Source: Octopus sinensis (taxonomy: Eukaryota). Taken from it: a stretch of DNA of 64,000 nt. The notes beneath the pieces were generated by a model that saw only the letters and a list, made by a program, of their open reading frames with translations, was not told the origin of the DNA and searched no databases. The position numbers and the translations under genes are program-made. Every line of letters starts with the position of its first letter. Position 1 is the stretch's first letter. The stretch lies in NCBI RefSeq assembly GCF_006345805.1, contig NC_043006.1, positions 42,842,001 to 42,906,000 on the forward strand, read 5' to 3'. Shown here piece by piece: positions 3,777-11,093 of this stretch.

Positions 3777-4009
3777 TACACACATATGTATATGTATGTA
3801 TATGTATATATTTATATGCATATATATATGTATATATGTATATATTTATATGGATATATATATATATATTAACACACACACACACACACATATATACATA
3901 CATATATAGATGCATATATATATATATGTATATGCGAAAACCTGACAAATAAAGTGAGTCCACAGCATATCCTACACCAACTTCATACAACCAGCTCCAG
4001 CCCATTCAA

Positions 4010-4480
4010 AGAACCTTGGATCGTAGGACGACCTGCTGTGCTTACCTTGGATCGTAGGGTGACCTGCTGTGCTTGAGGAGACCTATTGAGTCAAGTACAT
4101 CAACATCAACATCAAAATATAAATCAAATGGAAATTGTAGTTGTGATACCTGTGCCGGTGGCACATTAAAAGCACCATCTGAATGTGGCCGATGCCAGCG
4201 CCACCTTGACTGGCTTCTGTGCAAGTGGCACGTAAAAAAGCACCAACTGATCGTGGCAATTGCCAGCCTCCTCTGGCCCCTGTGCCGGTGGCACATAAAA
4301 AGCATCCACTACACTCATGGAGTGGTTGGCGTTATGAAAGGCATCCAGCTGTAGAAACACTGCCAGATCAGACTGGAGCCTAGTGCAGCCTCCTGGCTTC
4401 CCAGATCCCAGTCAAACCATCCAACCCATGCCAGCATGGGAAACAGACGTTAAACGATGATGATGATGATGATGATGATG
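4010..4480 (+). mobile_element. 3' UTR fragment of an RTE-type LINE with (GAT)n tail
   Basis: Homologous to 42270-42894, which follows an RTE ORF; shared gagtggttggcgtt...ggcatccagctgtagaaac motif and GAT tail. Confidence 0.8.
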
Positions 4481-4519
4481 ATATACACAATATATATGTC
4501 TACAACTTGTGACAGACCA

Positions 4520-4840
4520 TGCCTTTCTTTTGCTGGGCTCATATCTCATAGAAAACAAACTTCCACCAACTATTCTACCTATATGTCTGTGCACACCTTT
4601 CAATGTAATGTATGCCAGAAGGTCTGAAAATTTAATGGAGGCCTTAAAAGTCATTTTAAGACCCACAAAGACCAGAACTTATCTGCAGCTCTTGGTGGTC
4701 CAAATCAGCTATGCAATCTATGTGGGTGTACTTTCAAAGCATTGTCTGGTTTAAAAAGCCACATCAGATGCCATGAGGGTTCTAAGGTGTAGGTACAAGA
4801 GGTGGTCAAACTCTGCATAAGGAGCAGACAACCACTATAT
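4520..4840 (+). pseudogene. Degraded LINE ORF C-terminus with two C2H2 zinc fingers (probably RTE-BovB-like)
   Basis: 4598-4792 translates FQCNVCQKV*KFNGGLKSHFKTH...CNLCGCTFKALSGLKSHIRCHEGSKV*. Confidence 0.65.
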
Positions 4841-4849
4841 ATATAGTCA

Positions 4850-5038
4850 CCATGATAGATCGTTAGCCACTACATACATTTTTTTCTCTCTTTGTTTTTT
4901 CTGTGTCCCTTTTGGTAGAAGAGCGTAGGCTCAAAACGTAAAAGACTTTTTTCTATTCCTGAGCATTATACTAATACATCTGTTTGTTTTGTACACCACC
5001 TGTCTTCATCTTTTGTCTTTTTCGTAAACTCTCTCTAT

Positions 5039-5040
<2 letters not shown>
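4850..5040 (+). mobile_element. PLE terminal-repeat (pLTR) fragment with hammerhead-like motif
   Basis: Homologous to 34900-35102 at the 3' end of the PLE remnant. Confidence 0.75.
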
Positions 5041-5072
<32 letters not shown>

Positions 5073-5079
<7 letters not shown>

Positions 5080-5966
5080 AACTTACTTGGAGAAGAGAAA
5101 CAACACGTGCGTTCGGTCATATAATAACAATATAATAAATAAATAAAATAAATAAAACATATGCATATATACATACATATATGTACATACTTACATCTAT
5201 ATGTATATATACATGCATATATATATATATGAGTACAGGACACCACAAATAAACGTAGAACACAACGAGAAACGAAAACATAAAATCCAACAAGGAAACG
5301 GACTTTTTTTAACAACGAAAAAAACAGAGTACAGGACAAACAATACAAGGAAAATTCCCCTTCATCAGCTGCCCCTGGTTCGACTCAATGCTTGTTTTGA
5401 AGGTAAGGGCAGAACATGGCCAGACCGAAGCAGTCCTTCCTGCAAAAGGAATTAAATAAAATTCTTTTGCAGAGGGGTAAAACAAGTGACAAGAACAGGA
5501 CGTAAAAGCAATACAAATGAAGAAAAACAGTAGAAAAAACAGTACAAATAAAGAATAACAGGACAAGAAAACCAACAATAAGGGCTTTTTTAGGCCTAGA
5601 CAGTGGAAAAATTAGTTAGAACGCATGTGAAAAATTGGCTTGCGAAAGACAGAGAAGTCAATGTATGCTTGTTGAAAGCACGAGCTGAAAGAAAGTTTTA
5701 GTAGCACTCTGGTCAACGGCCAGAGAGAGGAGGAGGAGAGAGAGGAGAGAGAGAGAGAGAGAGAAGGGGAAAAGAAACCAGAAAGGGTGAAAAATAAGAA
5801 GGAGAGAGACAAGTAGAGAGGAAGACAGACAGGCAGGGAGGAAAGGTCAAGTAAAGAGTAAGAGTGCGCATCATGATTATTCAAATAAAAACTTACTTGG
5901 AGAAGAGAAACAACATGTGCGTTCGGTCATATAATAACAATATAATAAATAAATAAAATAAATAAA
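5073..5966 (-). mobile_element. Repeat bounded by ~85-bp direct repeats, likely PLE-derived
   Basis: 5073-5158 nearly identical to 5883-5966; minus strand contains ctgatgaagggg near 5355-5370. Confidence 0.55.
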
Positions 5967-6128
5967 TGTATGTATGTATGTATATATTCTATAATTATAA
6001 ACATAATTATAATCAGGGGTCAGCTAATTACTTCACCACATGCTGAATTTTAGAAATAGGAGTTAAAATGCCTTTTCTGCTACTATAAAGATCTCCCAGA
6101 ATATAACACCTTTTTTGTTTTACGTAGG

Positions 6129-6174
<46 letters not shown>

Positions 6175-6189
6175 CACACTCTCACATAT

Positions 6190-6380
6190 ATCATCATCAT
6201 TTAATGTCTACTTTCCATGCTGGCATTGGTTGAACAGTTTCATACGGAGGTGGCTAGCAGGGAGCTGTCCAGACTCTAATTGTCTGTTGAGGCACAGTTT
6301 TTTATGGCTGGATGTCCTTCCGAATGCCAACCGCTTAACAGAGTGTGCACTGAGTGCTTTTTATGTGCCACCGGCACATA
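6190..6380 (-). mobile_element. RTE 3' tail fragment
   Basis: Reverse complement of the GAT-tailed family. Confidence 0.7.
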
Positions 6381-6494
6381 TACAGATACATAAATATATA
6401 TATATATATATACATGCAAGTGTATATATATATATACACATACATGCATATATACATATATATACTCACACACTCACATATATATATACATATG

Positions 6495-6685
6495 TATGAT
6501 AGATCGTTAGCTACTACACACATTTTTTTCTCTCCTTGTTTTTTATGTGTACCTTTCTGTAGAAGAGCGTAAGCTCAAAACGTAAACGACTTTTTCTATT
6601 CCTGAGCGCTATACTAATACATCTGTTTGTTTGTACACCACCTGCCTTCGTCTTTTGTTTATTTTCATAAACTTTCCCTTTATAT
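6495..6685 (+). mobile_element. PLE pLTR fragment with hammerhead-like motif
   Basis: Same family as 4850-5040 and 34900-35102. Confidence 0.75.
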
Positions 6686-6759
6686 ATATACATATATACA
6701 CATACACACATACATATATATATACATGCATACATACATACATACATATATATATATAT

Positions 6760-7269
6760 AAGTAGTTGAATGAATTATCCTACTATGGATAATTCGGTTA
6801 ACCGATACCCGGGTAGCAAATTCACGTCAGAAAACATGGTTAAAGCTACATGCCAAGGGCAGAGATCACGTGCTTTCGTGTGGAAATTTGTGTGTTTTTT
6901 TTACTATAAATAAATGAAAGAATGGAGCTGAATGACGATTTAACAAAATTTCTTTATTCTCGACATATGTTTTGAAGACTGCATATTCCTATTTCCGAAG
7001 GAATAAAGGGTGCATTATGCCGACTTCTCATCAGGAAAGCCAAGGAACTTATGTCAGCATCATGACAAACATTATCACTATGGACTCCGTGTGGGCAGTC
7101 ATCTAAAAGTTTTTGTTCGTCATGATGCTGACATAAGTTCCTTGGCTTTCCTGACGAGAAGGCAGCATAATGCACCCTTTATTCCTTCGGAAACAGGAAT
7201 ATGCAGTCTTCGAAACATATGTCGAGAATAAAGGAATTTTGTTAAATCGTCGTTCAACTCTATTCTTTC

Positions 7270-7280
<11 letters not shown>
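6760..7280. mobile_element. Fold-back element: ~150-bp leader plus imperfect inverted repeat (arms ~6905-7071 and ~7114-7280)
   Basis: Arms are reverse complements with a few mismatches; flanked by (TA)n. Confidence 0.85.
7147..7227 (+). ncRNA. Candidate type I hammerhead ribozyme
   Basis: tttc-CTGACGA-gaaggcagcata...tatgcagtcttc-GAAAC-atat-GTC-gaga: canonical core, long stem II, palindromic minimal stem III, stem I tttc/gaga. Confidence 0.75.
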
Positions 7281-7349
<69 letters not shown>

Positions 7350-7354
<5 letters not shown>

Positions 7355-7959
7355 TGAAATGGATAAATGAATTATCTTGTTAAGGATTATTCAAAATTTA
7401 ACCGATACCTGGGTAGCAAACATCACAACAGAAAAAACACGGTTGAAGTTACGACCTTGGGGTGTCACAACCGTGCCTTAGCGTGGATAATTGAAGTTTA
7501 ATATATTTAGTGAAGGGAAGAAATGGAGCTGAACGAAGATTCTACAGAATTCCTTTTATTATTTTCTACACATGTTTCAAAGGCCGCAAATTTCCAAATT
7601 CGGATTGAATAACGAGACCATTTTGCAGCATTCTCTTCAGGAAAATCCAGGAATTAAAAATCCAAAACAAATGCGCAGCAAGGTATTCGAACAAAACACT
7701 CCTTAGGAGCCCATGAAAAAGCACAAAACTGTTTTGTGCTTTTTCATGGGCTCCTAAGGAGTGTTTTGTTCGAATACCTTGCTGCGCATTTGTTTTGGAT
7801 TTTTAATTCCTGGATTTTCCTGAAGAGAATGCTGCAAAATGGTCTCGTTATTCAATCCGAATTTGGAAATTTGCGGCCTTTGAAACATGTGTAGAAAATA
7901 ATAAAAGGAATTCTGTAGAATCTTCGTTCAGCTCCATTTCTTCCCTTCACTAAATATAT
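7350..7959. mobile_element. Fold-back element: leader plus perfect palindrome 7501-7959 (229-bp arms, centre T7730)
   Basis: Arms read as exact reverse complements; leader related to 6760-6900; rearranged relative at 37543-37680. Confidence 0.9.
7814..7899 (+). ncRNA. Candidate type I hammerhead ribozyme (mirror copy on minus strand ~7561-7646)
   Basis: attttc-CTGAAGA-gaatgctgcaaaat...atttgcggccttt-GAAAC-atgt-GTA-gaaaat. Confidence 0.72.
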
Positions 7960-8195
<236 letters not shown>

Positions 8196-8437
8196 TTTAA
8201 TACACAATACATGGATTTAACTAAACTGGTTGTACTTACAAAAAAGCTCCTTTAGTGGACCAAGCTACAAACCACATATTTGACCAGTACAGAGAGATGT
8301 AATGCATCATCGTATGCAGTTGGAATCCATTAGACCAAATTAGTAACATCTATTTCAGAAAGTCAGGAGGTACAAAATGAATATATTATTTCACCAGTTG
8401 ACATCCATAAGATCACAATCGTTTTGCAGCCAACAAA

Positions 8438-10765: not shown

Positions 10766-11093
10766 AACTATATTTCAGTTATTTACATTTGAGGGACATT
10801 TGTCCTCATCTTGTTTGTTGTTAACACGTTTCGGCTGATATACCTTCCAGCCTTCATCAGGTGTCTTGGGGAAATTTCAAACGTTGGTTCTCATTCCTAA
10901 GGTATTTTTCGATGTTATTATTATTATTATTATTATTATTATATTATTATTATTATTATGATTATTATAATTATTATGATTATTATAATTATTTCTTCTT
11001 ATTATTATTATTCAGGTCACTGCCTGGAATCAAACTCAGAATCTTGGGGTTAGTAGCCCTTGCTCTTAACCACTACTCCATATGCCCACAGGC

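Follow-up and report, generated by a model that had tools for sequence, protein, structure and literature searches.

Two adjacent hammerhead fold-backs in an octopus (TA)n tract as probable head-to-head pseudo-LTR insertions of coding Penelope-like elements

Two fold-back elements lie side by side in the genome of Octopus sinensis, each with a hammerhead ribozyme fold on both strands, and they raise the question of what such elements derive from, how their two arms came to face each other and what the ribozyme contributes. At stake are the origin of the inverted pseudo-LTRs (pLTRs) and tails of Penelope-like elements (PLEs) and the role of PLE hammerheads. We consider it highly probable that the two elements, here E1 and E2, are independent short head-to-head pLTR insertions in (TA)n from two related coding PLE families, presumably formed by twin priming, and that each arm carries a conserved hammerhead fold that likely cleaves only as a dimer.

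Layout and hammerhead folds of the two insertions

The window, that is, the whole 64,000-nt stretch of DNA analysed, holds the two fold-backs where the original prediction had placed them, sharing one architecture and set in (TA)n. (TA)n or related microsatellites border both elements, which are ~70% alike in sequence, and in this 64-kb window the inverted repeat of E1 occupies 6905–7071/7114–7280 (167 nt, 94%) and that of E2 7501–7729/7731–7959 (229 nt, 100%). We attribute their adjacency to the (TA)n target that both families share. The sequence originally described as a leader of ~150 bp is present, but it is the 146-nt 3′ tail read on the minus strand. ORFs inside 6700–8000 were short and uninformative, and no remnant of a parent ORF was found in the window. 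The features are listed below, with arm positions numbered relative to the predicted ribozyme cut.

6681–6760, no strand: left target flank, a (TA)n/(CATA)n microsatellite
6760–7071, minus strand: E1 tailed arm, read as the 5′-truncated 3′ end of PLE family 1, −109 to +202 from the cut
6760–6904, minus strand: E1 146-nt tail, bounded by the fixed 3′ ends +57 and +202
6962–7034, minus strand: E1 minus-strand copy of the hammerhead, predicted to be inactive (G12→A at 6973)
7070–7280, plus strand: E1 tailless arm, −153 to +57, beginning at an initiator-like site
7147–7227, plus strand: E1 type I hammerhead fold
7147–7150/7224–7227, 7151–7157, 7158–7211 and 7215–7222, plus strand: E1 stem I, core, domain II and palindromic stem III
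7273–7354, no strand: (TA)n separating E1 and E2, a target tract common to both
7355–7730, minus strand: E2 tailed arm, read as the 3′ end of PLE family 2, about −166 to +214
7355–7500, minus strand: E2 146-nt tail
7567–7640, minus strand: E2 minus-strand hammerhead copy, core intact
7731–7959, plus strand: E2 tailless arm, −163 to +66, perfect complement of 7501–7729
7814–7899, plus strand: E2 type I hammerhead fold
7814–7819/7894–7899, 7820–7826, 7827–7881 and 7885–7892, plus strand: E2 stem I, core, domain II and stem III
7954–8183, no strand: right target flank, a (TA)n/(GATA)n/(CATA)n microsatellite

On the plus strand of E1, CTGACGA at 7151 is followed by a 54-nt domain II and by GAAAC-ATAT-GTC ending at 7223; the corresponding parts of E2 are CTGAAGA at 7820, a 55-nt domain II and GAAAC-ATGT-GTA ending at 7893, with a stem III (7885–7892) that is self-complementary when G–U pairs are included. 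Cleavage is predicted after 7223 and 7893. The minus-strand copies begin at 7034 (E1) and 7640 (E2). Hammerheads had been proposed on both strands of each element, and the folds were located accordingly, but the minus-strand core of E1 is altered (G12→A at window position 6973); thus, the core CUGANGA...GAAA, the A15.1–U16.1 pair and H17 are present in three of the four window copies.

Structure prediction returned a distal stem I helix, with which the hammerhead-compatible fold comes within 0.7–3.8 kcal/mol of the MFE, and predicted stem III self-duplexes of −7.0 and −6.0 kcal/mol; the isolated hammerheads were not significantly better folded than shuffles (z −1.2 and +0.3). In the predicted read-through RNA, the hammerhead motif is fully paired with the antisense arm, which supports the earlier suggestion that read-through would yield long dsRNA. 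A read-through hammerhead would then be locked in duplex, so that cleavage at this locus would need transcripts starting at the fold-back centre. Dispersed fold-backs of this kind are a likely source of dsRNA in the host.

Several other repeats were seen. Beside E1 (window ~6495–6680, plus strand) and again at ~34970 (plus strand) there is a third (TA)n-flanked repeat with a minimal hammerhead-like fold comprising a 4-bp stem I, a 4-bp stem II, no loop III and a non-canonical core in which A6 is U; similar sequence was present in 24 of the 263 loci fetched. At window position 10860, on the minus strand, a hammerhead-like core has a short paired stem II and no clear stem I. A further inverted repeat (window 8444–8564/8674–8794; 121 nt, 87% complementary) was rare among the loci fetched. 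At locus L007, E1-family and E2-family insertions lie within ~800 bp of each other, like the window pair.

Coding parents, abundance and covariation

Some copies of the window elements extend upstream, beyond the short form. One locus, L062, is a complete element of ~3.7 kb with an uninterrupted 902-aa ORF at 4725–7433 that contains RT and GIY-YIG domains. It is preceded by a 5′ pLTR with hammerhead and tail (4241–4682) and an inverted tailless arm (3862–4119), and a 3′ UTR separates it from a 3′ pLTR (7919–8350) that is 98% identical to E2. E1 sequence, in turn, lies ~500 nt downstream of a related ORF in all 20 long loci fetched using upstream sequence, and these E1-side ORFs (at loci including L081, L080 and L072) are 45–81% identical by segment. 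The Penelope-like origin first suggested is thereby borne out, with ORF-bearing parents encoding RT and GIY-YIG found for both elements.

The ORF has RW(L/F), DKT (position 122), YRDD and, at its C terminus, a GIY-YIG lacking CCHH, together with CxxC..E..CxH (CNLC at 862, CPH at 890). Its best-scoring named homolog is from an octopod. Pfam returned no family for the whole ORF, the RT domain included, and a weak GIY-YIG match (E 0.084) when that domain was excised. Of 71 full-length homologs, 60 have the CxCX5C linker before EN, as does the L169 family of this genome; it is absent from the E1 and E2 families, which have Asn/Ser-rich inserts instead. Because the Hydra motifs are present but this linker is not, we call the families Hydra-like PLEs rather than strict members, a placement by motif description. 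As judged from these sequence features, E1 and E2 are 5′-truncated 3′ ends, or pLTRs, of two autonomous PLE families nearest to the Hydra clade.

Family sequences were present among the contigs of four runs, which speaks to presence and not to starts, ends, strand or level. One such contig (run X2, record 25), placed at L062:4690–8352, joins 7944 to 4720 and lacks the hammerhead and tail that separate the upstream pLTR from the start of the ORF; its junction ends are non-canonical as splice sites. Among the other loci, L063:4193–5083 (minus strand) holds a transposase fragment that we take, from its motifs, to be mariner-like, and the flank of L005 from ~1700, translated by eye, reads as part of another PLE's GIY-YIG, with two cysteines separating GIY from YIG.

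The hammerhead is abundant. A tight pattern matched the genome 4,774 times (0 for the reversed control), and a looser pattern allowing a 41–67-nt domain II matched 13,771 times (58 for the control), a figure in which two-arm insertions are counted twice. First-look candidates numbered 1,914 and 1,481 at 93–99% identity, 40 of which were scored in each case, and these are not copy numbers. Among copies partly selected by similarity, 117 of 136 and 29 of 32 retain the core pattern.

Covariation was assessed in an alignment of 20 subfamily copies hand-picked for diversity, in which 90.8% of cells pair and 41 cells are double-changed compared with 16 in shuffles (0/500). Two other measures stayed at shuffle level (pairs with a double change, 39/500; pair types, 197/500). 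Compensated pairs amount to 7/12 in basal stem II, the helix that RNAalifold also recovers unprompted, while the apical hairpin of domain II has zero double changes in the same 20 rows. The ~55-nt stem II originally proposed to pair throughout is thus upheld in its basal ~12 bp but not in the distal ~30 nt, where compensatory change is lacking; on this alignment the basal ~12 bp appears to be the only supported helix in the 55-nt domain II. Of 27 clusters of unrelated domain II sequences, some of them favoured by the genome patterns used, 21 have a paired stem I, compared with 11% when partners are swapped, and 22 have a self-complementary stem III; perfect stem III palindromes of five different kinds occur in 7 of 10 clusters met incidentally in flanks. 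Covariation is thus seen from family to family in stem I, in stem II and in the palindrome of stem III, a pattern indicating that the hammerhead fold is under structural selection. Far from lacking the core or stem covariation, the family keeps its core mostly intact and its stems covary; together with the folds, this upholds the proposed type I hammerhead with a lengthened domain II and a stem III that is palindromic and of the dimer type.

The comparison with Rfam that had been suggested turned out differently: no hammerhead model matched the window elements at gathering score or at E ≤ 10, and below-threshold matches to generic hairpin miRNA models were rejected. Since long-domain-II hammerheads escape Rfam despite their many pattern matches in many unrelated families, hammerhead counts in such genomes are likely too low. 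Unrelated families with 43–65-nt domain II and differing stem III palindromes were seen at L168, L169, L185, L170, L172–L180, L155, L123, L127 and L144. The distant L168/L169 family is collinear with a Hydra-type ORF that keeps the CxCX5C linker; therefore, the long arm is not tied to loss of the linker.

Origin of the inverted arms

Arms end at +57 or +202 in the E1 family and at +66 or +214 in the E2 family. In a position-based sample, made up of the first 100 of the 854 places where a 24-nt marker just 3′ of the cut is matched exactly, 96 arms finish at one of two fixed sites, 58 of them tailless and 38 tailed. Thirty of the 100 begin at −159 to −142 and 15 begin further upstream; 30 of 85 5′ stops fall in a single 18-nt window (p 3e-9). 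Arms beginning at the ribozyme cut numbered 2 of 100 compared with 2.7 expected, and a hint of such copies in a tail-selected set (5 of 53 arms, at 3 loci) was gone in the position-based sample. At L123:1495–1759, a single case, both arms of a head-to-head pair start exactly at +1, the predicted cut. Upstream of the 5′ stop of E1 lie TGACGTCA (−193), TATAA (−180) and TCATT (−154), and upstream of that of E2 lie TGACGTCA (−188) and ACAGTT (−166); going by their likeness to promoter motifs, we presume these to be promoter and initiator.

Most insertions combine one tailed and one tailless arm, in counts that pool loci picked by similarity and by position. Among 94 distinct head-to-head pairs of the E1 family, 87 are tailed plus tailless, one end could not be classified in 5, and of the other two pairs one has two tailless arms and one has two tailed arms; for the E2 family the same combination accounts for 16 of 20, with 2 pairs unclassifiable and 2 tailed twice (one a tandem with a tailless outer end, the other with mirrored flanks). 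More distant families have the same asymmetry, with tails of roughly 70–155 nt, and outer flanks are TA-type at 160 of 174 ends. The two arms of an insertion agree at 406 of 426 subfamily-diagnostic sites (51 pairs), compared with 62% (maximum 72%) when shuffled. Both arms of an insertion derive from one subfamily, a concordance that could partly reflect the activity of one subfamily at a time.

How far the arms reach bears on how the second one is made. Among the 87 pairs, the tailed arm stops before +57 in 20, the tailless arm is longer on the 5′ side in 29, the tailed arm is longer in 25 and the two are level in 13. The tailless arm holds sequence missing from the tailed arm in 49 of 87 pairs and therefore is not a fold-back copy of it, and fold-back self-priming was rejected as a general source of the second arm. 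Arms overlap in 67 of 87 pairs, so simple twin priming on one RNA is insufficient and either template re-use or a second RNA is needed. A conserved tail structure predicted from 11 tails was dropped because it showed zero compensatory changes. At L017:945–1460, five short alternating direct and inverted copies of the first 30–60 nt of the element lie at the junction, which suggests repeated template jumps at the RNA 5′ end.

We propose that a promoter in the pLTR would start the RNA ~153 nt upstream of the ribozyme, a position suggested by where copies stop and by the look-alike motifs. The element protein, likely as a dimer, would nick both strands of a (TA)n tract, and each strand would prime reverse transcription at an internal site of the RNA, either +57/+66 or +202/+214. 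Both cDNAs would extend toward the RNA 5′ end, often halting early or at the start site, and would then be joined head to head. The nicking and priming steps are drawn by analogy with the anole PLE, whose protein in vitro cuts and extends both strands, begins at two internal sites on either side of the tail and copies RNA that has not been cleaved (PMC11167929). The ribozyme would probably process tandem transcripts; copies run across the cut site, which means that their template RNA had not been cut, and the ribozyme is therefore likely kept inactive in monomers and works only when dimeric or in the presence of protein.

A bolder version of this scheme, which we regard as unlikely, is that the palindromic stem III of the long-domain-II subclass would pair two element RNAs in the manner of a retroviral dimerization signal, and that a protein dimer, working from opposite strands of the DNA, would copy the two RNAs beginning at the two fixed start sites. 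The need for template re-use or two RNAs leaves room for it. If true, it would explain the overlapping arms of one subfamily, the one tailed and one tailless end per insertion and the uncut templates, and it would answer what PLE hammerheads are for.

What the fold is kept for admits a further interpretation, namely that it serves mainly as a structural or protein-dependent element, such as an RNA dimer interface or folding switch, and does not cleave as RNA alone. We hold this possible, if rather doubtful. There is no surplus of copies beginning at the cut; the hammerhead of the anole PLE needed protein to cleave and could be dispensed with in vitro (PMC11167929), and metazoan PLE hammerheads are described as cleaving weakly even as dimers (PMC4209133). 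However, the core-adjacent stems, where the search pattern left them free, covary exactly as catalysis requires, and the fractions of intact cores given above, partly similarity-selected as they are, point the same way.

The original prediction had read the elements as a non-autonomous, retrozyme-like family, and short start-site-to-tail copies might likewise be taken for a SINE- or retrozyme-like family that propagates itself when mobilized in trans. One 5′ end is common to 30 of 100 arms, a few short-only clades are well supported (8, 7, 5 and 4 members, nested), and animal retrozymes are reported to derive from PLE pLTRs (10.64898/2026.07.22.740005), but we consider this reading quite improbable because the long (31) and the short (61) copies each include both alleles at all 11 polymorphic sites and most supported clades mix the two classes. 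The window arms are no closer to either class: E1 arms average 0.928 to long and 0.929 to short copies, and E2 arms 0.979 and 0.977. Moreover, TGACGTCA and TATAA lie upstream of the common start and hence are lost in short copies, and the retrozyme hallmark of head-to-tail tandem units was not found among 220 hammerhead copies; only 4 of these sit within 1 kb of another copy on their own strand, and they are accounted for by the window pair, two local duplications and a repeat of 84 nt. Coding parents, shared alleles, mixed clades and the absence of tandem arrays thus led us to abandon the retrozyme-like label. MITE- or foldback-type DNA transposons would account for long terminal inverted repeats with no ORF in the window, and an assembly artefact for E2 arms that are 100% identical, yet neither is at all credible here: the arms are variably 5′-truncated copies of one RNA-sense sequence, many are solitary, and they run on into the RT ORF, which refutes the DNA-transposon reading for the family, while E2 is asymmetric, with a tail on one side and differing flanks, and the same layout recurs with imperfect arms at dozens of loci. 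Independent head-to-head pLTR insertions from coding PLEs remain our preferred reading.

Significance and comparison with known elements

PLE hammerheads, inverted pLTRs and tails are already known, and small PLE hammerheads are reported to cleave as dimers. The locus is ordinary PLE debris, but the families it comes from have a hammerhead form that is both unusual and abundant, and their insertion signature is unusually easy to read. In the literature found, leaving room for subscription papers, Repbase or Dfam, there was no description of long-domain-II (51–65 nt) hammerheads in cephalopod or Hydra-type PLEs, nor, within the same limits on subscription papers and TE libraries, of a 146-nt PLE tail; (TA)n targeting without the CxCX5C linker was not found described, and it is relevant to the suggestion that the preference for microsatellites is set by this linker. 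The 146-nt tail lets the two priming sites be told apart easily, in thousands of copies and alongside the intact L062 ORF, so that both the twin-priming model and the role of the ribozyme are directly testable.

The Hydra clade is described by an RW motif, DKT, no CCHH, CxxC/CxH, (TA)n targeting and a CxCX5C linker (PMC8557442). The E1 and E2 families resemble it (Craig et al. 2021, PMC8557442) in their single ORF with RT and C-terminal GIY-YIG, the RW motif, DKT and lack of CCHH, CxxC and CxH around a conserved E/N, insertion into (TA)n and a type I hammerhead close to the 3′ end whose short stem III is self-complementary. They differ in having an Asn/Ser-rich stretch where the linker would be, an ORF of 902 aa in a unit of ~3.7 kb, whereas described Hydra elements are under 3 kb with a canonical hammerhead (PMC8557442), and a domain II of 54–55 nt, roughly double the usual size, rather than at most ~26 nt in the Hydra rows of File S2 (PMC8557442). 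Hydra-1_Obim (709 aa, 23-nt domain II; PMC8557442) is a different family. A comparably long domain II is tabulated in the accessible supplement of PMC8557442 only for non-animal EN-minus elements such as the spike-moss PLE-X1_sMoe. In its accessible portions, octopus repeat annotation mentions PLEs and no ribozymes (PMC13282606).

Known PLE pLTRs are described as inverted, with a tail of 30–40 nt at one of the ends, TATA/Inr motifs and inserts rich in Asn (PMC3846280; PMC8557442). E1 and E2 share with this architecture, and with PAc (PMC11167929), the head-to-head inverted 5′-truncated copy, the tail on one end and solo pLTRs, as well as TATA/Inr-like pLTR motifs, Asn-rich ORF inserts and two internal RT start sites, but their tail is 146 nt rather than 30–40 nt, and their hammerhead and tail lie wholly upstream of the ATG (the L062 tail ends ~45 nt before it), whereas those of PAc overlap the ORF start (PMC11167929).

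The hammerheads are likewise close to the minimal PLE hammerheads of Cervera and De la Pena (2014, PMC4209133), which are type I with a palindromic helix III, a helix I of 4–6 bp and a larger-than-usual helix II, and which occur in thousands of dispersed copies and in opposite-strand pairs 100–700 bp apart; a short stem II and palindromic stem III are also described in PMC3088659. Helix II, however, measures 7–8 bp in PMC4209133, compared with a 12-bp mismatched basal helix capped by ~30 more nt here. Metazoan non-LTR retrozymes (PMC7229834; 10.64898/2026.07.22.740005) are similar in being short, non-coding and dispersed, in carrying a type I hammerhead and in their relation to PLE pLTRs, but they are head-to-tail tandem repeats whose canonical hammerheads give rise to circular RNAs, whereas E1 and E2 are, on the evidence assembled here, head-to-head truncated ends of ORF-bearing elements.
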